Below, piece after piece: positions 16,171-25,746 of a stretch of DNA of 64,000 nt; position 1 is the first letter of the stretch, and each line of letters opens with the position of its first letter. Below the pieces are notes generated by a model, which saw only the letters and a program-made list of their open reading frames with translations, did no database searches and was not told the origin of the DNA. The stretch comes from an uncultured Gammaproteobacteria bacterium (GTDB taxonomy: Bacteria; Myxococcota_A; UBA796; JAJRTE01): NCBI GenBank assembly GCA_964418585.1, contig CAYQMG010000072.1, positions 19,121 through 83,120 on the forward strand. The letters run 5' to 3'. Position numbers and translations under genes: made by a program.

Positions 16171-16478
16171 GCAAAAAACCCCACCGAGCAGGAATGTTGC
16201 AGCCACGCGAAGTTACATCGGAAAAGAATCCCGTTTCTCCCCCTGCCACCAGTCAGCGTCCAACAGGACATCTCACTCGCCCCCCCCTCGGTATCCCGGC
16301 AACCGTTGCTATTGCGTTCCGGCCTCCAGAATGGTAGCTTGAACCCGACCATCCCAAACCGGTCCATGATTCTTCCGGCACACTTCGCCGGAGGCGCGTT
16401 GCAAACGAGGCATCGGCAGCCTTTCCAGGCCGCACGGTGTTGCCAGGGATTCAGTTTCTATCTCCAGGAGTATCACTC

Positions 16479-19034
16479 ATGAGTCATATTCACGAAAACG
16501 AAGCCGCGGAACACGCGGCGCCGACCCTGTCGCTCCACGAGCGAAGCCCGTTCCTGACCGAGGCGCAACTGAAAGCGGAACTGTCCAAGTGCGAGTTCTG
16601 CGAAGAAAAACCCTGCCTCGAGGCCTGTCCATGCCACTGCTCGCCCGCAGACTTCATCCACGCAGCCCAGGTCGGCCTTCCTTCCGACATCCGCCGCGCA
16701 GCCGCCGAAATCATGACCCGAAACCCCCTCGGGGGCGTGTGCGGCATGGTTTGCCCGGACCATCACTGCATGGCAGCATGCGTGCACAAGAAACTCGATG
16801 GTGCAGTGGACATTCCCCAGGTGCAGGCCGCCCTGGTCCAGAAAGCCAAGGATCTGGGGGTGATGCCCGAACTGGCTTCGCCAACGCCGTCGGGCAGGCG
16901 CGTGGCAGTGATCGGTGGAGGTCCGGCAGGACTGGCGGCGGCCGGGACTCTGGCCCAACGGGGCCACGAGGTGACCTTGTTTGAGCGGGACGACCGTCTG
17001 GGCGGCATGTGTCTGTGCATCCCCGAATTCCGACTGGAACGTTCCGTTCTGGAGAGCGACATCGACTGGCTGATTTCTCAGACCGGTGTGCGGGTGGAAC
17101 TGGGTACCGAGGTTGGGTCGCCCACCGAACTGCTGTCCGAGGGGTACGACGCGGTGGTGGTGGCCACTGGACTCTGGGAGCCGATCCGACTCGGGATACC
17201 CGGGGAGGAACTGGCCACGGCGGCCACGGATTTCCTCAAGCATCCCGAACAGATCGACGTATCCGGTCGCGTGGCGGTCATCGGTGGCGGCGCCACGGCG
17301 TACGACTGCGCGGTGACAGCGATGGCCCAGGGAGCGGCCCGGGTCGAAATGTTCGCGCTGGAGAACCTCGCCGAAATGCCCCTCACCGAGAAGGAGATGA
17401 AGGGGCTGGTGAGCAGCGGGGTGGACGTGGGGGGGCGTGTCCAGGTCACCGAAATTCTCCAGGCGGGAGGCAAGATAACCGGTCTCCGGACCCGCAAGGT
17501 GAGCCTGCCTCGAGGCAAGACCTTCCATCCCACGCACATGGTCCCGGTCCCGGGCACGGAAACCCGGAGGGATGACTTCGATACAGTCATCATCGCCATT
17601 GGCCTCCGCTCCGGATTCCCTCGGGTGGAAGATCCCCGTGTGGTCTACGCAGGAGATTGCGCCGAAGGTCCGACCACGGTGGTGGAGGCGTCGGCGTCGG
17701 GCAAGAACGCTGCCGACGTGGTCGAGGCGATTTTCCAGGCGTCTCCCAGGCCGAGCTTCCCGAGGAACAAAAGTGGCCATGTCAAGAGCCGGGCACTGGT
17801 TCCGGGCTACGACACCCGACCGGTCGGGCTCGAGGCCGAATTCTTCGGCCGGCCCATCGAGACGCCCTTCCTCCTTTCGGCCGCCCCGCCCACCGACGGC
17901 CTCGAGCAGATGCGCAAGGCCTATGCGGCGGGATGGTCCGGGGGCATCATGAAAACCGCATTCGACGGGATCCCCATCCACATCCCCGAACGGTACATGT
18001 TCACCTTTGACAAGAACACCTACGCGAATTGCGACAACGTGTCCGGTCACCCCCTCGACCGCATGTGCCGGGAAATCGAGCAACTGGTCAAGGAGTTCCC
18101 GGACCGCCTCACCCTCGGCTCCACCGGGGGCCCGGTCACCGGAGACGACGAAGCGGACGCCCGCCAGTGGCAGAGCAACTCCCGCAAGCTGGAAAATGCG
18201 GGGGCCATGGGCATCGAGTTCAGCCTGTCGTGCCCGCAAGGAGGCGACGGGACCGAGGGCGACATCGTGTCTCAAAATGCGGCCCTGACCGCCAAGATCA
18301 TCGACTGGGTCCTTTCCACCGGCGACGGGAACGTGCCCAAGCTGTTCAAGTTGACCGGGGCGGTCACCTCGGTCGCAGCCATCGTGGCGGCCGCTCGAGA
18401 GGTCTTCGAGCGATATCCGGACAAGAAGGCCGGGATCACCCTCGCCAACAGCTTCCCCACCCTGGCGTTCCGCAAGGGGAACAAGCCGACGTGGGAAGAA
18501 GGTATCATCGTGGGGGCCAGCGGCGCCGGCATCCTCAACATCAGCTACCTCTCCCTCGCCAAGGTCGCCCACCTCGGCGTCACCGTGTCCGGAAACGGCG
18601 GCCCCATGGACTACAAGGCCGCGGCCGACTTCCTCGCCCTCGGTGCACGCACAGTCCAGTTCTGCACCATCGTAATGAAATACGGTTACGGCATCATCGA
18701 CCACCTCACCTCTGGCCTCAGCCACCTCATGGCCGACCGGGGCATCTCGAGCGTGCAGGAACTGATCGGGATCGCATTGCCAGACCCCATCACCGATTTC
18801 ATGGACCTCTCACCGGTCAAGAAGGTCTCCCAACCCATCCGCGATCTGTGTCTCCAGTGCGGCAACTGCACCCGCTGCCCCTATCTGGCCATCTCCATGG
18901 ACGCGGATGGATTCCCGGTGACCGACCCGTCCCGGTGCGTCGGATGTGGGATCTGCGCCCTCAAGTGCTTCGCATCGGCCATCGAAATGCGCGAGCGCAC
19001 GCCCGAAGAGGCCGCGGCGCTCAAGGAGTTCTGA
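16479..19034 (+). CDS. Dihydropyrimidine-dehydrogenase-type flavin/Fe-S oxidoreductase, fused GltD/PreT-like plus DHOD/PreA-like (YgfK-like)
   Basis: N-terminal 2x[4Fe-4S] Cys clusters (CEFCEEKPCLEACPC, CGMVCPDHHCMAAC). Two dinucleotide-binding motifs (VAVIGGGPAGLAAA, VAVIGGGATAYDCA). DHOD-like TIM barrel. C-terminal 2x[4Fe-4S] ferredoxin (CLQCGNCTRCP, CVGCGICALKC). ATG at 16479 with CAGGAG RBS; the listed ORF opens on an upstream TTG. ssnA follows 19 nt downstream, as ygfK-ssnA do in E. coli. Confidence 0.75.
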   Translation: MSHIHENEAAEHAAPTLSLHERSPFLTEAQLKAELSKCEFCEEKPCLEACPCHCSPADFIHAAQVGLPSDIRRAAAEIMTRNPLGGVCGMVCPDHHCMAACVHKKLDGAVDIPQVQAALVQKAKDLGVMPELASPTPSGRRVAVIGGGPAGLAAAGTLAQRGHEVTLFERDDRLGGMCLCIPEFRLERSVLESDIDWLISQTGVRVELGTEVGSPTELLSEGYDAVVVATGLWEPIRLGIPGEELATAATDFLKHPEQIDVSGRVAVIGGGATAYDCAVTAMAQGAARVEMFALENLAEMPLTEKEMKGLVSSGVDVGGRVQVTEILQAGGKITGLRTRKVSLPRGKTFHPTHMVPVPGTETRRDDFDTVIIAIGLRSGFPRVEDPRVVYAGDCAEGPTTVVEASASGKNAADVVEAIFQASPRPSFPRNKSGHVKSRALVPGYDTRPVGLEAEFFGRPIETPFLLSAAPPTDGLEQMRKAYAAGWSGGIMKTAFDGIPIHIPERYMFTFDKNTYANCDNVSGHPLDRMCREIEQLVKEFPDRLTLGSTGGPVTGDDEADARQWQSNSRKLENAGAMGIEFSLSCPQGGDGTEGDIVSQNAALTAKIIDWVLSTGDGNVPKLFKLTGAVTSVAAIVAAAREVFERYPDKKAGITLANSFPTLAFRKGNKPTWEEGIIVGASGAGILNISYLSLAKVAHLGVTVSGNGGPMDYKAAADFLALGARTVQFCTIVMKYGYGIIDHLTSGLSHLMADRGISSVQELIGIALPDPITDFMDLSPVKKVSQPIRDLCLQCGNCTRCPYLAISMDADGFPVTDPSRCVGCGICALKCFASAIEMRERTPEEAAALKEF

Positions 19035-19053: not shown

Positions 19054-20379
19054 ATGAGCAAGTTGTTGATAAAGCACGGCACCGTCGTCACCCTGGGTGA
19101 GAACAACCAGGTCATCCACGACGGGGCCGTCCTGATCGAAGACGACAAGATCATCGGCGTGGGGCCCACTTCCGCACTCGAAGCTTCCTTCCAGGACGGA
19201 GAGGTCATCGACGCACGCAACCAGGTGGTCATGCCCGGGTTCATCTGCGCCCACCACCACCTCTACAGCACCATGGCTCGAGGATTCGCCCCTCCAGGAG
19301 AGCCGGCGGTGACGTTTGGGGAGATCCTGGAACGACTCTGGTGGCGTCTCGACCGGGCGCTCACCCCCGAGGATGTCACCTACAGCGCCCTGGTGCCGCT
19401 CATCGAGTGTATCAGGAACGGGACCACCACCATCCTGGACCACCACGCGAGCCCTTCTTGCCGAGACGGAAGCCTCGACCTGCTCGCCGACGCCGTGCTC
19501 CAGGCAGGAATCCGGGCCTCGCTCTGCTACGAGGTCTCGGACCGGAACGAACCGGGCGCCGGAGTCCAGGAGAACGCGCGGTTCCTGGAGAGGCTCCAGC
19601 ATGAAAAGACCGACCAACTGGCCGGCATGGTGGGTATCCACGCGTCGTTCACCGTTTCCGACCGCACCCTCGAGCAGTGCCGCTCGGTGGGCGAACGCTA
19701 CGGGGTCGGATATCACATCCACGTGGCCGAGGGCGTCGAAGACCACCAGCATGCGCTCGAGCACCATCATGTGCGCACGGTGAAGCGCCTGGTGGACCGG
19801 GGGATTTGCGGAGAGGGTTCGCTGTTCATCCATTGCATTCACATTGACGACCACGAAATGGACCTCATCCGGGACACCGGAACCATTGTGGTTCACAACC
19901 CCGAATCCAACATGAACAACGCCGTGGGGGTGGCTCGAGTCCTGGAGATGATGGACAAGGGTATCCTCGTCGGACTGGGCACGGACGGGATGTCCTCGGA
20001 CATGCCTGCCCAGATGCGCTGCGCCTACCTGCTCCACCGGCTCGAAAAACGGGACCCTCGAGTCGCTTTCGTGGAGGCACCTCAGATGCTCCTGTTCAAC
20101 AACGCCCGCATCGCCAACCGATTCTTCCCGGTCAAGCTCGGGAGCATCGAGGTGGGAGCAGCGGCGGACCTGGCCTTGCTCGACTATCTGCCGCCCACGG
20201 AATTCAACTCGAGCAACTTCCTCGGGCACTTCATCTTCGGGATGGTGGATGCCACGGTGGACACCACGATCGCCCGGGGGAAGGTGCTGATGCGCAACAA
20301 GCAGATCCTGGTGCTTGACGAGGAGCGGATCGCGGCACGGAGCCGCGAACTGGCTGCCGGGGTCTGGGAGCGGTTCTAG
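19054..20379 (+). CDS. ssnA: Putative aminohydrolase SsnA (amidohydrolase superfamily)
   Basis: Long stretches are near-identical to E. coli SsnA (ILERLWWRLDRAL...ILDHHASP...). ATG at 19054 with AGGAGG RBS. About 441 aa. Confidence 0.85.
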   Translation: MSKLLIKHGTVVTLGENNQVIHDGAVLIEDDKIIGVGPTSALEASFQDGEVIDARNQVVMPGFICAHHHLYSTMARGFAPPGEPAVTFGEILERLWWRLDRALTPEDVTYSALVPLIECIRNGTTTILDHHASPSCRDGSLDLLADAVLQAGIRASLCYEVSDRNEPGAGVQENARFLERLQHEKTDQLAGMVGIHASFTVSDRTLEQCRSVGERYGVGYHIHVAEGVEDHQHALEHHHVRTVKRLVDRGICGEGSLFIHCIHIDDHEMDLIRDTGTIVVHNPESNMNNAVGVARVLEMMDKGILVGLGTDGMSSDMPAQMRCAYLLHRLEKRDPRVAFVEAPQMLLFNNARIANRFFPVKLGSIEVGAAADLALLDYLPPTEFNSSNFLGHFIFGMVDATVDTTIARGKVLMRNKQILVLDEERIAARSRELAAGVWERF

Positions 20380-20401: not shown

Positions 20402-21607
20402 TCAGGGCATCTGCAATACCTTCGCGGCCTTTGCCACCGCCAGGTCAATCTCTTCCCGGGTCACAACAAGCGGCGGGGCGAAACGGATCACGTTCTCGTG
20501 GGTCTCTTTGCAGAGGACGCCTTCGTCCATCAACGCCTCGCAGAACCGACGGGCGCCACCGGCGGAAGGCTTCAGCACCACGCCGATGAGCAGGCCCTTG
20601 CCCCGAACATGGTCCACATGGGGACTGTCGATGGCCCGCAAGCGGGTCATGAAATAGTCTCCAAGCTCTGCGGCCCGACCCGGCAAGTCGTCACGGACCA
20701 GAATCTCGATCGCCTTCCGGCCCACTGCACAGGCGAGGGGATTGCCTCCGAAAGTGGAACCGTGCTCGCCCGGCGTGAACAACCCCAGCACTTCGGACCG
20801 ACCGACCACCGCGGAGACGGGGAGCAGCCCACCCCCCAGGGCTTTGCCCAGGGTCATCATGTCCACGACGACATCCTCGTGCTGGAAAGCGAACATCTTG
20901 CCCGTCCGGCCCAGTCCGGTCTGAATCTCGTCCACCACCAGCAATACCTGGTGCTGGTCACACAGGGCACGCACCTTCCGGAGATAGCCTTCGGGTGGTA
21001 CCACCACACCGGCCTCCCCCTGGATGGGCTCCACCAGAAACGCCACCGTGTTCGGCGTGACAGCGGCCTCGAGTGCGTCCAGATCTCCATAGGGAACCAC
21101 CTTGAATCCCGGGGTAAACGGGCCGAAATCCTCCCGATAGAGCGTCTCCGTGGAAAAGGAGACCACCGTGGTGGTCCGTCCGTGGAAGTTGTTCTCACAC
21201 ACAATGATCTCGGCATCGTACCGGGGAACCCCCTTGACGCGATAGCCCCACTTGCGGGCCGCCTTGATCGCAGTCTCCACCGCCTCGGCCCCGGTATTCA
21301 TCGGGAGCATGAGGTCCATTCCGCACAGCTCACACAGTTCTCGAGCAAACGGACCTAGCTGATCGTTGTGAAAGGCCCGTGAGGTCACGGCCACCCGTGC
21401 AGCCTGTTCGACCAGGGTGGCGATCAGCTCCGGATGGCTGTGCCCGTGGCTCATGGCCGAGTAGGCGCTCAGCATGTCCATGTACCGCCGACCCTCCACG
21501 TCGGTAACCCAGACACCCTGGGCTCGAGCAATCACCACGGGCAGGGGGTGGTAGTTGTGGGCGCTATAGGCCTCTGTCAATGTCACGAGTTCTCGAGTGG
21601 TTGCCAT
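20402..21607 (-). CDS. rocD: Ornithine aminotransferase (class-III PLP aminotransferase)
   Basis: MATTRELVTLTEAYSAHNYHPLPVVIARAQGVWVTDVEGRRYMDMLSAYSA... and the rest track B. subtilis RocD closely. ATG at 21607 with CAGGAG RBS; the listed ORF opens upstream without support. Confidence 0.8.
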   Translation of the reverse strand: MATTRELVTLTEAYSAHNYHPLPVVIARAQGVWVTDVEGRRYMDMLSAYSAMSHGHSHPELIATLVEQAARVAVTSRAFHNDQLGPFARELCELCGMDLMLPMNTGAEAVETAIKAARKWGYRVKGVPRYDAEIIVCENNFHGRTTTVVSFSTETLYREDFGPFTPGFKVVPYGDLDALEAAVTPNTVAFLVEPIQGEAGVVVPPEGYLRKVRALCDQHQVLLVVDEIQTGLGRTGKMFAFQHEDVVVDMMTLGKALGGGLLPVSAVVGRSEVLGLFTPGEHGSTFGGNPLACAVGRKAIEILVRDDLPGRAAELGDYFMTRLRAIDSPHVDHVRGKGLLIGVVLKPSAGGARRFCEALMDEGVLCKETHENVIRFAPPLVVTREEIDLAVAKAAKVLQMP

Positions 21608-21748
21608 GACGACTCCTGAGACACGCCGGACTCCCAACGTCCGGGGGGACCGTGGTGTTCGACGTGCGGACAAGGCCCTGCCGCCTCGAGACTCCTGCGG
21701 ATCAAGCACGTTGCCACGAGGAGCTGGAGGTCGGCAAAGCGTGTGGGT

Positions 21749-22669
21749 TCATTCTCCCATCAGCAGAAGCATGATCGCTTTCTGGGTGTGCAGCCGGTTT
21801 TCGGCCTGATCGAAGATCACCGACCGCTCATGATCACAGACCTCGTCGGTGACCTCTTCGCCCCGATGAGCAGGAAGGCAGTGCATGAAGATGGCGTCCT
21901 CCTTGGCCCGGGCGAACAGGTCCATGTTCACCTGGAATCCAGCGAAGTCGCGCAAGCGCTTTTCCCGCTCCGCTTCCTGGCCCATGGAAGCCCAGACATC
22001 GGTGTAGACCACATCCGCCCCCTGGACGGCCGTGGTGGGGTCGTTGGTCACCTCGACGCGGACGCCACGCCGGGCCGCGTCGTCCGCGACCGCGTCCAGG
22101 ACCTGCGGGGAAGGCTCATACCCTGTGGGCGATGCGACCGCAATGTGCATTCCCACCTTGACTGCCCCGGCGATGAGAGAGTGGGCCATGTTGTTGCCGT
22201 CGCCGATGTAGGCGATCTTGCGACCGGCAAGGTCTCCCTTGTGCTCGCGGATGGTGAAGTAGTCGCACAGGGCCTGGCAGGGGTGCACCTCGTCATCCAA
22301 CCCGTTGATCACCGGCACGGTTCCGTACCGGGCGAGGTCGAGGATGTCCTGGTGAGCAAAGACTCGAGCCATGATTCCGTCCACGTAGCGGGAGAGGACT
22401 CGAGCGGTATCGGCGATGGTCTCGCCCCGGCCCAGTTGGAGGTCGCGGGCACCGAGGAACAGGGCGTGACCGCCCAACTGGAACATGCCCACCTCGAAGG
22501 AGACGCGGGTTCGCGTGGACGATTTCTGGAACAGCATGCCCAGGGTCTTGCCTTGAAGTCGCTGGGCATAGGCGCCGGGGTCGTCCTTGACGGCCCGGGT
22601 CAAGGTGAGGATTTCCTCCACGTCCTCGAAAGTGAGGTCACGTATCGTAAGCAAGTGTCTGGCGTTCAT
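21749..22669 (-). CDS. argF: Ornithine carbamoyltransferase
   Basis: STRTR carbamoyl-phosphate motif, HCLP motif and OTC-type ornithine-binding region (DxxxSMG). About 306 aa from ATG 22669 (MNARHLLTIRDLT...). Whether it is anabolic or catabolic (arcB-like) cannot be decided from sequence. Confidence 0.8.
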   Translation of the reverse strand: MNARHLLTIRDLTFEDVEEILTLTRAVKDDPGAYAQRLQGKTLGMLFQKSSTRTRVSFEVGMFQLGGHALFLGARDLQLGRGETIADTARVLSRYVDGIMARVFAHQDILDLARYGTVPVINGLDDEVHPCQALCDYFTIREHKGDLAGRKIAYIGDGNNMAHSLIAGAVKVGMHIAVASPTGYEPSPQVLDAVADDAARRGVRVEVTNDPTTAVQGADVVYTDVWASMGQEAEREKRLRDFAGFQVNMDLFARAKEDAIFMHCLPAHRGEEVTDEVCDHERSVIFDQAENRLHTQKAIMLLLMGE

Positions 22670-22837
22670 GGCGAAAAGCTCTCCTCCGCTATGCCGACGG
22701 TCGGGAACGGCGACGCCCTCCGAGGGTGTCGCGCCCCGCCAGGCGGGAACACGAGTCAGGCGCACCCAAGTATTCTGAAAACGAGCCAACATTCAAGACC
22801 AAAGCGACTCCTCCGGTACCGTGGAGGGGCGCCGGTG

Positions 22838-22862
22838 GGGCCGAGCCCGTTTTTTTTGTTCC
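22838..22862 (+). terminator. Intrinsic-terminator-like hairpin (GGGC-cga-GCCC) followed by T8, in the leader of the PLP-enzyme/ygeW operon: candidate attenuator
   Basis: gggccgagcccgttttttttg on the + strand, preceded by a second 7-bp stem (ctcctcc...ggagggg). A T8 run is exceptional at this GC content. It lies about 160 nt upstream of the 23023 ATG, with no + strand gene upstream to terminate. Confidence 0.3.
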
Positions 22863-23022
22863 ATTTCCGTTCAGTCATGCTACCTTACCAGCTTTGTCGA
22901 AGAATCTGGCCAGTTCGAAAATGCGTGGATGGGCGCAGGCGGACTGGACATCCGGAGCGGTCGTGAAGGATCGGCCTGTCTGGACCCCATCCACCTCGAG
23001 GCACACCATCGAAGGGAGCGTC

Positions 23023-24513
23023 ATGAAACACCGAATCATCGAGAACATTCGCGAAGACGTGCTGAAGAAATCGATTCAACGAGCCCGGGTGCGGGGCGTC
23101 ATTCTTCCCCGATTTGCGGAGCAAAAGGACCCGAGCCTGGTGCCGGCGAAGATCGTGGAAAAGCTGGCCGACGTGGGCCTGTGGGACGTGAACCCTCTGA
23201 ATCTGTTCCGGATCACGTGGTACAATGAGCCGAAGGCCCATGGCGGCGGATTCGGGGAGGGGAACTGGATCGAGTTCCCGCCCGAGTTGACCGGGGTGGA
23301 AGCTCGTATCGTGGGCCTGGTGGGCAAATGGTTCCCCACCGGAGCCCACAAGGTGGGCGCAGCCTACGGGTGTCTCGTGCCGCGCCTGATTTCCGGGAAT
23401 TTCGACCCCATCATGCAGAAGGCGGTCTGGCCGTCCACGGGCAACTACTGTCGAGGTGGGGCCTATGACTGTGCACTCCTGGCCTGCCCGGCCATCGCCA
23501 TCCTGCCCGAGGGGATGAGCCGCGAGCGTTTCGACTGGCTGCGAGAGATCGGGACGGACGAAATCATCGCCACCCCTGGGACGGAATCGAACGTGAAGGA
23601 GATCTACGACATGTGCTGGGAACTCCGCAAGGAGCGGGGTGATGAAATCGTAATCTTCAACCAGTTCGAGGAGTTTGGCAACGCGATCTGGCACTATCAC
23701 ATGACCGGGTCCGTTGTGGAGCACATTTTCGAGCACCACATCAAGACCGAGCGCAGCCGGTTGTCCGGGTACATCAGTGCCACCGGTTCGGCGGGCACCA
23801 TTGCGGCGGGGGACTATCTCCGGACCCGGTATCCTGGGATCCGGGTGACCGCCAGTGAGGCGTTGCAGTGTCCGACGCTCTACCAGTTTGGCTTTGGAGA
23901 GCACCGAATCGAGGGAATTGGTGACAAGCACGTGCCCTGGATCCACAACGTGAAGAACACCGACATGGTGTGCGCGGTGGACGACGAGCAGACCATGCGG
24001 CTCCTGCGCCTGTTCAACGAGGACGCCGGGCGCGATGTGCTGGTGGAGCGCGGAGTGGACGCGGCCGTGGTCGATCAACTTCCACTCCTCGGTATCTCCA
24101 GCATTTGCAACCTGGTTGCAGCCATCAAGACCGCCAGGTACTACGACATGGACGGCCGTGATGTCCTGTTCACACCGCTCACCGACTCCACGGAGCTTTA
24201 CGGTTCCCGAATCCAGGAGGCCCGTGAGCAGTTCGGGGCCTACACCCGCACCGATGCACTGGTGGATGCGGCCCGGTACCTGGATGGAACCAACACGGAT
24301 CACATGAGAGAGCTGACCTATCACGACCGCAAGGCCCTGCACAACTTCAAGTATTTCACCTGGATCGAGCAGCAAGGACGCACTTCGGACGAGCTGCATG
24401 AACTGTGGGACGACGATTTCTGGGCCGAGATTTTCTCCCAGGAACAGATCGATGAATGGGACCGGTTGATCGAGCAGTTCAACGAGGCCACCGGGTTGCT
24501 GAAGAACCTGTGA
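23023..24513 (+). CDS. Fold-type-II PLP-dependent enzyme, tryptophan-synthase-beta-like (GAHK lysine motif), unknown specificity
   Basis: PTGAHKVGAAYG (PLP-Lys motif of TrpB-like enzymes) and STGNYCRGGAYDCALL (Gly-rich phosphate loop). 496 aa from ATG 23023 with GAAGGGAG RBS. 39 nt upstream of ygeW on the same strand. Confidence 0.6.
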   Translation: MKHRIIENIREDVLKKSIQRARVRGVILPRFAEQKDPSLVPAKIVEKLADVGLWDVNPLNLFRITWYNEPKAHGGGFGEGNWIEFPPELTGVEARIVGLVGKWFPTGAHKVGAAYGCLVPRLISGNFDPIMQKAVWPSTGNYCRGGAYDCALLACPAIAILPEGMSRERFDWLREIGTDEIIATPGTESNVKEIYDMCWELRKERGDEIVIFNQFEEFGNAIWHYHMTGSVVEHIFEHHIKTERSRLSGYISATGSAGTIAAGDYLRTRYPGIRVTASEALQCPTLYQFGFGEHRIEGIGDKHVPWIHNVKNTDMVCAVDDEQTMRLLRLFNEDAGRDVLVERGVDAAVVDQLPLLGISSICNLVAAIKTARYYDMDGRDVLFTPLTDSTELYGSRIQEAREQFGAYTRTDALVDAARYLDGTNTDHMRELTYHDRKALHNFKYFTWIEQQGRTSDELHELWDDDFWAEIFSQEQIDEWDRLIEQFNEATGLLKNL

Positions 24514-24552
24514 GCCGGACCGAGCCCGGTACGAGATAGAAGGAGCAGTGCG

Positions 24553-25746
24553 ATGAAAGAACGAATACGAACGTTGATCGACCAACTCGCCGACACGCCG
24601 ACCGGCCTGTACCAGAAGGATTTCCTTCTCACCTGGAACCAAACCGACGCCGACCTCCGGGCCGTGCTGTTGGCCACCGAGATCCTCGAGGCATTCTACC
24701 GGGCCAACATCGATGCACGCACGTTCCGCGGTTCTTTGGCCGTCTCCCTGTTCCGCGACAAGTCCACCCGGACGCGCTTTTCGTTCGCCAGTGCGGCCAG
24801 CTTGCTCGGCCTCTCACTCATGGATCTCGACGAGACCAAGTCCCAGGTGGCGCACGGTGAAACGGTGCGCGAGACCGCCAACATGATCTCCTTCCTCACC
24901 GAGGTGATCGGGATTCGGGACGACATGTTCATCGGCGAGGGACACGAGTACATGGCCGAGGTTTCCCGGTCGGTGGAGGCCGGGTTCGCCGAAGGCGTGC
25001 TTCCGCAACGACCGGCGGTCATCAACCTGCAATGCGACCGGGATCACCCCACCCAGTCGATGGCCGACCTCATGCACCTGGTCAAGACCTTCGGGTCGCT
25101 CGAGGCACTCCGGGGCAAGAAGATCGCCATGACCTGGGCCCACTCGCCATCCTACGGAAAGCCGCTCTCGGTCCCCCAGGGCATCATCGGACTCATGACT
25201 CGCTTCGGCATGCACGTGACTCTCGCCCACCCGGAAGGGTATGACCTGATGCCGGACATCGTGACCAAGGCCGAGGCATTCGCCAAGGAGTCCGGAGGCC
25301 GGTTCGAGACCACCCACAGCATGGCGGATGCGTTTGCGGACGCCGACATCGTCTACCCCAAGAGCTGGGCGCCGTTCCAGGTGATGCAGGAACGGACACG
25401 CCTGCTCCGGGCCGGAAAAGCCGCAGAACTCGACAGGCTCGAGAAGCAATGCCTGGAGGACAACGCACGGCACCGCGACTGGGAATGCACCGAGGACCTG
25501 ATGGCCCTCACCAGGCAAGGCAATGGCCTCTACATGCACTGCCTGCCTGCGGACATCACCGGCGTGAGCTGTGAAGCGGGCGAGGTCGCGGCCTCGGTAT
25601 TCGACCGGTATCGCTGGCCGACCTATCGTGAGGCGGAGCACAAGCCCTACGTCATGGCGGCGATGATCCTGCTCACCCGGTTCGAGGAGCCTGCACGTAT
25701 CCTGGGCGACCTGCTTGCCAAGGACGCCCCTCGGCGCATGCGGTGA
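24553..25746 (+). CDS. ygeW: YgeW-type (knotted) carbamoyltransferase
   Basis: 397 aa. Long stretches are near-identical to E. coli YgeW (KDFLLTW, SxFRDxSTRTRFS, KSQVAHGETVRETANMISF, LPQRPAVINLQCDxDHPTQSMADL, KKIAMTWAxSPSYGKPLSVPQGIIGLMTRFGM, LYMHCLPADI). Confidence 0.85.
   Translation: MKERIRTLIDQLADTPTGLYQKDFLLTWNQTDADLRAVLLATEILEAFYRANIDARTFRGSLAVSLFRDKSTRTRFSFASAASLLGLSLMDLDETKSQVAHGETVRETANMISFLTEVIGIRDDMFIGEGHEYMAEVSRSVEAGFAEGVLPQRPAVINLQCDRDHPTQSMADLMHLVKTFGSLEALRGKKIAMTWAHSPSYGKPLSVPQGIIGLMTRFGMHVTLAHPEGYDLMPDIVTKAEAFAKESGGRFETTHSMADAFADADIVYPKSWAPFQVMQERTRLLRAGKAAELDRLEKQCLEDNARHRDWECTEDLMALTRQGNGLYMHCLPADITGVSCEAGEVAASVFDRYRWPTYREAEHKPYVMAAMILLTRFEEPARILGDLLAKDAPRRMR

Follow-up and report, generated by a model that had tools for sequence, protein, structure and literature searches.

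In Escherichia coli, the last step of the reductive uric-acid pathway belongs to YgeX, whose gene directly follows ygeW. The question raised by the locus described here is what stands in that place when ygeW has a different pyridoxal 5'-phosphate (PLP) enzyme at its side. The locus lies in a 64,000-nucleotide stretch of DNA from an uncultured bacterium (contig CAYQMG010000072.1, positions 19,121 to 83,120; hereafter the window, meaning the whole stretch analyzed). At 23023–24513 on the forward strand, ahead of ygeW, it encodes a 496-aa fold-type-II PLP enzyme, here called PALP-494. An earlier note on this DNA took the enzyme to be TrpB-like and proposed that it is a non-orthologous replacement of YgeX linked to ureides, or else an OrtB-like protein. 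We find that PALP-494 is a separate, uncharacterized family of the CysK/CBS branch of fold-type-II PLP enzymes and that its conserved gene context makes it a component of the reductive uric-acid/purine degradation pathway. PALP-494 probably carries out the last step of anaerobic purine breakdown in many environmental bacteria. The reading that we favor, by a modest balance of the evidence, is that it replaces YgeX without being homologous to it, converting 2,3-diaminopropionate to pyruvate and two molecules of ammonia via aminoacrylate.

The reductive (2,8-dioxopurine) route was established by two studies in E. coli and Clostridia (Liu et al. 2025; Li et al. 2025). After XdhD or XdhAC has reduced urate to 2,8-dioxopurine, the ring is reduced by YgfK or UacX and opened by SsnA to ureidomethyl-hydantoin, and HyuA turns this compound into 2,3-diureidopropionate. 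YgeW and phosphate then remove one ureido group as carbamoyl phosphate, from which the carbamate kinase YqeA makes ATP. YgeY hydrolyzes the remaining ureido group to give 2,3-diaminopropionate, from which YgeX makes pyruvate and ammonia (Liu et al. 2025; Li et al. 2025). Between the two studies there is no agreement on the ureido group that YgeW takes off: the YgeW product was reported as albizziin, whose free alpha-amine is what PLP chemistry requires (Li et al. 2025), and as the other isomer, 3-amino-2-ureidopropanoate (Liu et al. 2025). The stereochemistry of the pathway is not settled, and its intermediates are proposed to be D-configured. Elsewhere, "YgeX" was assigned by PF00291 alone, or alternatives were left undiscussed (Liu et al. 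2025; Li et al. 2025), and a CysK-like or ThrC-like enzyme in this pathway is mentioned neither in these two papers nor in the later literature searched. The gene order in E. coli K-12 MG1655 is ygeW-ygeX-ygeY-hyuA-yqeA, and ygeW is followed by a ygeX of 398 aa, as the earlier note had stated.

The open reading frame (ORF) of PALP-494 starts with an ATG at 23023 and has GAAGGGAG just upstream. This start is favored over an upstream GTG at 22726 because alignments with homologs begin at residues 1–4 of the 496-aa form. The ORF is a real gene and not a chance ORF, since a word-indexed search returned at least 8,000 database relatives, the best 120 of which are full-length (486–589 aa, mostly 493–496) and 73%–79% identical. 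A 39-nt spacer (24514–24552) separates it from ygeW (24553–25746, forward strand, 397 aa), so that both genes and the distance between them are as first described. Judged by its profile scores (645 bits on NF005538, cut-off 453; 621 bits on TIGR03316, cut-off 500) and by 62% identity to the E. coli protein, the downstream ORF is a bona fide YgeW, a knotted carbamoyltransferase. No terminator-like site was found in the spacer, and the two genes, which run in the same direction, are probably co-transcribed. They had also been called translationally coupled; their stop and start do not overlap, however, and ygeW has its own Shine-Dalgarno sequence within the spacer (AAGGAG, 7 nt ahead of its ATG).

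Profile searches placed PALP-494 below the cut-off of every curated family. The sole Pfam match is to the generic PALP domain (51 bits). The matching NCBIfam models are those for cysK, cysKM, CBS, and SbnA, which score 28–88 bits against cut-offs of 344–510; the best is cysK TIGR01139 (88 bits, cut-off 351), and the TIGR01138 and SbnA models reach 31 bits (cut-off 394) and 28 bits (cut-off 350). No TrpB or DpaL model was among the NCBIfam matches at E ≤ 0.01. A sequence search of the PDB found no close solved structure; the closest match was a CysK (E 1.9e-16) that covers residues 134–337 only. Membership in CysK, CysM, CBS, SbnA, or cysteate synthase was rejected on these scores, all of which are far under cut-off. 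In the databases, the best 120 relatives are called only "pyridoxal-phosphate dependent enzyme" or, in JGI annotations, "cysteine synthase." Gene fusions were also considered as a clue to function and set aside, as chimeric or read-through gene calls (with an ABC transporter, HerA, or a second PALP fragment) account for the longer relatives, which are uninformative.

The predicted structure points to the same lineage. An AlphaFold2 model made from 39 homologs has a mean pLDDT of 80 and a pTM of 0.86, and its top 50 Foldseek matches in the PDB are all CysK, OASS, beta-cyanoalanine synthase, or CBS catalytic cores, at about 25% identity. TM-scores normalized to the target are 0.70–0.79, except for two longer Toxoplasma gondii CBS entries. 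Normalized to the query they are only about 0.5, and therefore some 170 residues of PALP-494 lie outside the CysK fold. The model and the Foldseek alignments place these in an N-terminal helical segment (residues ~1–80) and a C-terminal helical domain (~400–496). Alignment of the family profile with E. coli CysK by hhalign (probability 96.6%, E 6.6e-10) pairs residues 133–395 with CysK 64–308 and matches the STGN, QF, TGSAGT, and GISS elements. The same comparison with E. coli TrpB gave a probability of 0.1%, and with E. coli YgeX 11% over 46 columns; by tblastn, YgeX and PALP-494 are 26% identical over 85 aa. Profile searches put the protein in no characterized family, and its predicted fold and active site are CysK-like.

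Motifs shared by the family are FPTGAHKVG, WPSTGNY, NQFEEFGN, TGSAGT, HRIEGIGDKHVPWIHNV, GISS, and HNFKYFTWIEQQG. The first contains K110, the predicted Schiff-base lysine, which is kept in at least 95% of 96 family members and lies 31 residues before the asparagine of the Asn loop, against 30 in CysK. CysK active-site elements are kept in the Asn loop (S138-T-G-N-Y), PEGMS, Q214-F215, H224, T228-G229, the phosphate loop TGSAGT, and GISS. NPLNLFRITW and the already listed HNFKYFTWIEQQG are invariant, family-specific motifs of the terminal extensions. PALP-494 is thus closest in sequence and fold to CysK/CysM and the CBS core, with which it has in common the Asn loop, PExMS, Q-F, H...TG, a glycine-rich phosphate loop, and GISS. 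It differs from CysK/CysM in its lysine motif (PTGAHK instead of SVKDR), in having about 80 more N-terminal and 100 more C-terminal residues than their single ~300–320-aa domain, and in its neighbors, which are purine-catabolic rather than sulfur-assimilatory. With TrpB/TrpB2 it shares the fold-type-II superfamily and a TGAHK-like lysine motif. That motif is the sole TrpB-like trait behind the initial label; profile and fold comparisons point to CysK/CBS instead, no trpA or indole context was seen around the gene, and identity with TrpB or TrpB2 was rejected given the hhalign result and the absence of TrpB from the top 50 Foldseek matches. Homology to DpaL was rejected too. YgeX/DpaL (E. coli b2871) is a fold-type-II PLP enzyme as well, but it has the loop TDGNHG with the catalytic Asp120 where PALP-494 has STGNY, it measures 398 aa against 496 aa with extra terminal domains, and no specific homology was detected between the two.

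The family is large and widespread. A library of representatives at 50% identity resolves the full-length family into one main cluster and about 10 diverged full-length clusters (31%–46% identity), and the distant members (P0124–P0236) reach no curated family either. Three distant full-length relatives (32%–38% identical) have no PLP lysine or lack other site motifs: in P0149 a glutamine replaces K110, and P0168 and P0178 are without the STGN and GIGDKH motifs. These three may be non-catalytic paralogs. A species-level scan of GTDB contigs, with one genome per species, confirmed at least 599 relatives in species-representative genomes. The best 80 of these are 56%–89% identical over their full length and come from more than 12 phyla; the closest among the matches listed is from Myxococcota (89%). 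Hosts of the best 80 include Myxococcota, Woeseiaceae, Kiritimatiellia, Verrucomicrobiota, Lentisphaerae, Planctomycetota, Fibrobacteraceae, Gemmatimonadales, Spirochaetes, Desulfobacterales, many Chloroflexota, Bacteroidales, Clostridia, Atribacterota, and Neomarinimicrobiota, and one cultured organism, Halanaerobium kushneri ATCC 700103.

Gene neighborhoods tie this family to reductive purine degradation. We compared 85 PALP-494 loci, with flanks of up to 10 kb on either side, to the E. coli pathway proteins (locus L087) and to the proteins of the window. At least one pathway gene (Xdh, YgfK, SsnA, HyuA, YgeW, YgeY, or carbamate kinase) is present in 69 of the 85 loci, and in 38 of the 43 that have at least 5 kb on both sides. 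The conserved neighbor families are a ThrC-like enzyme, carbamoyltransferases, carbamate kinase (33 loci), Xdh, YgeY, SsnA, HyuA, and an ABC transporter. Neighbors on the same strand within 250 bp are ThrC-like (21 loci), YgeY (16), Xdh (9), YqeA (4), YgeW (3), SsnA (3), DpaL (2), and HyuA (1). The adjoining M20 gene encodes a bona fide YgeY (540 bits on NF009555, cut-off 321). Layouts vary between lineages. Woeseiaceae have YgfK-SsnA-XdhB-XdhC-XdhA-PALP494-YgeY-carbamoyltransferase-YqeA without YgeX; Chloroflexota have two carbamoyltransferases followed by YqeA-ThrC-like-PALP494-HyuA-Xdh-SsnA; and Kiritimatiellia, Verrucomicrobiota, and Lentisphaerae have isolated PALP494-YgeY pairs (L001, L015, L017–L020). 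The order PALP-494 then YgeW, as in the window, recurs in L003, L007, L091, and L140. The gene is therefore kept beside ygeW or ygeY and within reductive purine clusters across many phyla.

The association was also seen from the side of YgeW. Metagenomes scanned with an alignment of bona fide YgeW proteins yielded 80 loci whose YgeW is 59%–68% identical to that of the window; many of the contigs are short, and the pathway is frequently dispersed over small modules, for example YgeY-YgeW pairs. PALP-494 occurs in 18 of these loci (alone in nine, with a ThrC-like gene in eight, and with DpaL in one) and DpaL in eight (alone in seven). Three have a ThrC-like gene alone, bringing ThrC-like genes to 11 loci, and 52 have no PLP gene. 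Two loci, L168 and L142 (the latter on a 2.9-Mb contig), read YgeW-PALP494-YgeY(-YqeA), so that PALP-494 stands where E. coli has ygeX in its ygeW-ygeX-ygeY order. A third, L120, is an E. coli-like cluster (YgeW 78%, YgeY 82%, YqeA 71%, YgfK 68%, and SsnA 67% identical) in which a PALP-494 relative (42% identical) precedes ygeW and ygeX is absent. A DpaL-like gene was found in only two of the 85 PALP-494 loci. In L128, L142, and L168, which look complete, and in the window, PALP-494 is the sole PLP enzyme visible.

Replacement of YgeX is favored because the site is of the CysK type, the neighbors unmask the amino groups of a C3 compound, and the gene takes the position of YgeX in clusters that have none, beside or between ygeW and ygeY. 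In the pathway, a YgfK-type reductase, SsnA, and HyuA reduce and open the purine to 2,3-diureidopropionate, and YgeW, by phosphorolysis, and YgeY, by hydrolysis, remove the two carbamoyl groups. The 2,3-diaminopropionate that is left would most likely be taken by PALP-494. It would form an external aldimine on the PLP bound by K110, and elimination of the beta-substituent would give aminoacrylate and then release pyruvate and ammonia. The CysK-like site would suit such aminoacrylate chemistry on a C3 amino acid. Diaminopropionate is the expected substrate, in preference to a mono-ureido compound, because complete-looking PALP-494 clusters (L128, L142, and L008–L016) hold both types of decarbamoylase; 3-ureidoalanine is possibly an alternative. 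Substrate, lyase rather than synthase outcome, and equivalence to YgeX are all inferred here from context and fold.

Several observations weigh against this assignment. CysK-type enzymes are typically L-specific and catalyze beta-replacement, and the intermediates of the pathway are proposed to have the D configuration. A true DpaL-type gene (ATDGNHGR) directly follows PALP-494 in two Bacteroidales loci, L037 (after 5 bp) and L040, and L165 reads PALP494-YgeX-YgeW-YqeA, with a YgeX of 50% identity. Two isofunctional genes in one operon are not expected, and PALP-494 may not be a one-for-one equivalent of YgeX. Mutual exclusion of PALP-494 and DpaL is not statistically supported, with one co-occurrence in the 80 YgeW loci against 1.8 expected. 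About half of the PALP-494 loci have the ThrC-like gene, whose product, by profile, resembles the dehydratases more closely than PALP-494 does and could act as the lyase in those loci. Finally, the window itself is without ygeY, hyuA, xdh, and carbamate kinase. What stands of the original proposal is that a different fold-type-II enzyme occupies the place of YgeX, in a gene order kept over many phyla; strict one-for-one equivalence is less certain, given the DpaL tandems and the pairing with ThrC-like genes.

That pairing is the commonest in the data set. The ThrC-like protein is a Zn-ribbon PLP enzyme of about 421 aa (for example, L052 7756–9021), with a variant of about 490 aa in L113 (126–1772) and L136 (3166–4635). 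It passes the thrC model TIGR00260 (175 bits, cut-off 167) and fails NF006050 (279 bits, cut-off 303). It is present in 51 of the 85 PALP-494 loci and in 16 of the 17 well-flanked loci that have two decarbamoylases, and it may be a second unrecognized PLP component of reductive purine degradation.

Taken broadly, the opposing view is that PALP-494 is not a diaminopropionate ammonia-lyase and performs chemistry undescribed for this pathway, either eliminating urea from (D-)3-ureidoalanine or belonging to an obligate two-enzyme system in which it and the ThrC-like enzyme resolve D and L forms of a C3 intermediate; we consider this doubtful. In the form of a ureidoalanine (albizziin) urea-lyase, the enzyme would take 2-amino-3-ureidopropionate from a single decarbamoylase to urea, pyruvate, and ammonia, bypassing the second decarbamoylase and YgeX. 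The many two-gene modules with one decarbamoylase (the PALP494-YgeY pairs, and PALP-494 with YgeW in the window and the four loci of like order) fit this scheme, as does the report of albizziin with its free alpha-amine as the YgeW product (Li et al. 2025), and it would account for the co-occurrence with DpaL. Both decarbamoylase types are nevertheless present in complete-looking clusters, and since genes are scattered in small modules and YgeY-YgeW pairs without a PLP gene are common, one visible decarbamoylase is not proof of one. Urea is moreover a poor leaving group, UreC motifs occur in none of the 165 loci (weak negative evidence), and the other isomer was also reported as the YgeW product (Liu et al. 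2025), so that we hold a urea-lyase to be unlikely. If it were true, the route would be shortened to one decarbamoylase and one PLP enzyme. Also quite unlikely, in our view, is an extra PLP step that is no equivalent of YgeX: a stereospecific lyase or a racemase acting on a single enantiomer of diaminopropionate or of albizziin, with the other isomer or the next step left to the ThrC-like enzyme or DpaL. The frequency and same-strand adjacency of the ThrC-like gene, the three PALP494-DpaL tandems, and the unsettled stereochemistry speak for such a step. It sits poorly with the four loci, the window among them, in which PALP-494 is the only PLP enzyme in sight, and ThrC-like genes that stand beside YgeW-YqeA without PALP-494 (L090, L118, and L143) are more what one would expect of alternative enzymes than of obligate partners.

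All of the closest relatives in sequence and fold (CysK, CBS, beta-cyanoalanine synthase, and SbnA) catalyze beta-replacement, and with the CysK signature residues kept, PALP-494 could instead be a synthase in which aminoacrylate from diaminopropionate or albizziin is captured by a nucleophile, such as sulfide to give cysteine, for C3 salvage rather than pyruvate. We judge this improbable: scores are far under every synthase cut-off, the conserved neighbors include no sulfur-assimilation or serine acetyltransferase genes, and the clusters, with a carbamate kinase in 33 of the 85 loci, are geared to conserving energy. A housekeeping enzyme (cysteine synthase, TrpB2, or OrtB-like) that neighbors ygeW by chance would agree with the JGI labels, with the GAHK motif, and with the ornithine genes that adjoin PALP-494 in the window. 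It is very hard to square with an association with purine genes over more than 12 phyla that is seen from both the PALP-494 and YgeW sides, or with the TrpB comparison and the profile scores, and among the 85 loci the ornithine genes adjoin PALP-494 only in the window and L007. The OrtB-like suggestion in particular is not supported, with no ornithine-fermentation partners among the conserved neighbors, in loci that were not searched with OrtA or aminomutase sequences. Equally far-fetched is a selenocysteine lyase/synthase-like role in selenium delivery for the maturation of a selenium-dependent molybdenum hydroxylase. PALP-494 adjoins Xdh in nine loci and YgeY and SsnA have historically been labeled "selenium metabolism-linked," yet YqeB was found in one and YqeC in none of the 85 loci, the closest partners are YgeY and YgeW rather than Xdh, and the window has no Xdh. 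Against these alternatives, replacement of YgeX is the reading that we retain.

Within the window, a second purine mini-operon lies upstream of PALP-494. Its ssnA (19054–20379, forward strand) starts with an ATG at 19054 with AGGAGG upstream and, by profile (NF005540, 560 bits against a cut-off of 444; TIGR03314, 526 bits against 455.5), encodes a bona fide SsnA, the ring-opening amidohydrolase that acts on the reduced purine. The stop of an 865-aa reductase gene (16437–19034, forward strand) lies 19 nt before ssnA. The reductase fuses a GltD-like FAD/NAD(P) domain to a PreA/dihydropyrimidine-dehydrogenase-like FMN domain with two [4Fe-4S] clusters (Pfam domains Pyr_redox_2, Fer4_20, DHO_dh, and Fer4). 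It stays under the NCBIfam cut-offs for PreA (194 bits, cut-off 335) and YgfK (152 bits, cut-off 835) and, over 405 aa, has 29% identity with the YgfK of E. coli. Domains and position are those expected of a YgfK/UacX-type enzyme, of which it is likely the counterpart, and it is probably a third architecture of 2,8-dioxopurine reductase besides YgfK and UacX.

Between the two mini-operons, on the reverse strand, are genes for an ornithine-oxo-acid aminotransferase (20402–21709; TIGR01885, 532 bits, cut-off 378) and an ornithine carbamoyltransferase (OTC; 21749–22792; TIGR00658, 424 bits, cut-off 281). These two share a direction, and the OTC gene is divergent from PALP-494. The profile match of OTC begins at residue 45, and its true start is probably about 40 codons inside the ORF. 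The same layout is found in L007, the Myxococcota locus of 89% identity. Because the 64 kb contain no carbamate kinase, OTC might use the carbamoyl phosphate released by YgeW, a speculative sink. In the intergenic region between the OTC gene and PALP-494, a block of about 50 nt (22857–22905; TGTTCCATTTCCGTTCAGTCATGCTACCTTACCAGCTTTG) is near-identical between the window and L007, in flanking intergenic DNA that has diverged. It matched no Rfam family and no sigma-70-like site was found in it; it is a candidate promoter or operator. An upstream riboswitch or attenuator was considered and rejected, with no Rfam match and one terminator-like hairpin (22834–22851), which is within chance expectation. 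Downstream of ygeW are recO and other housekeeping genes, and the rest of the window holds the nuo operon and further housekeeping genes. A tblastn search of the 64 kb found no Xdh (XdhD type), HyuA, YgeY, YgeX, or carbamate kinase; the missing pathway genes may sit elsewhere in the genome.

Other PALP-494 loci contain further genes of possible relevance to purine or ureide metabolism. HyuA is missing from many PALP-494 clusters. Some of these (L070, L073, L128, and L159) have a second, diverged SsnA-like amidohydrolase (26%–31% identity) that might open the hydantoin ring in place of HyuA. In Chloroflexota, two tandem carbamoyltransferases of about 326 aa precede carbamate kinase (tandem genes in L041–L049, L066, and L067; for example, L048 6614–7594). 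They fall under every NCBIfam cut-off (OTC 255 against 306, AOTC 253 against 288, and YgeW 189 against 453 bits), and the arrangement suggests that both ureido groups are removed phosphorolytically there, which would yield two ATP. A BMP-family (nucleoside-type) ABC transporter with binding protein, ATPase, and permease recurs in 13–20 loci (for example, L081 4063–6665 and L066 2889–4115), which fits purine or nucleoside uptake. On the Kiritimatiellia-like contig L001, AllF/AllH-type genes (72–2407; an FdrA-like CoA-ligase domain and AllH) lie about 8 kb from the PALP494-YgeY pair and hint at further ureide metabolism nearby.

Compared with the reductive clusters of E. coli, Clostridium sporogenes, and Clostridioides difficile, the window shares SsnA and YgeW and has a YgfK/PydA-like reductase; Xdh, HyuA, YgeY, and carbamate kinase appear in related loci. 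The window and these loci differ in having PALP-494 instead of YgeX, in often missing HyuA, and in being split into mini-operons. The reductive uricolytic pathway itself became known only in 2025; what is described here is a variant of it that centers on a very widespread, uncharacterized PLP family. Our results indicate that the PLP gene of these clusters belongs to a different, unstudied family in many environmental and rumen lineages, among them Myxococcota, Woeseiaceae, Kiritimatiellia, Verrucomicrobiota, Planctomycetota, Chloroflexota, Bacteroidales, and Halanaerobium. In the sampled YgeW neighborhoods this family is commoner than YgeX (18 against 8 loci), and the distribution of the pathway has so far been mapped with any PF00291 neighbor counted as YgeX. 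Characterizing PALP-494 would correct "cysteine synthase" annotations on thousands of proteins and add a new CysK-derived catalytic scaffold. It would also bear on the question of the true ureido isomer and enantiomer, and would complete the pathway beyond the gut model organisms.

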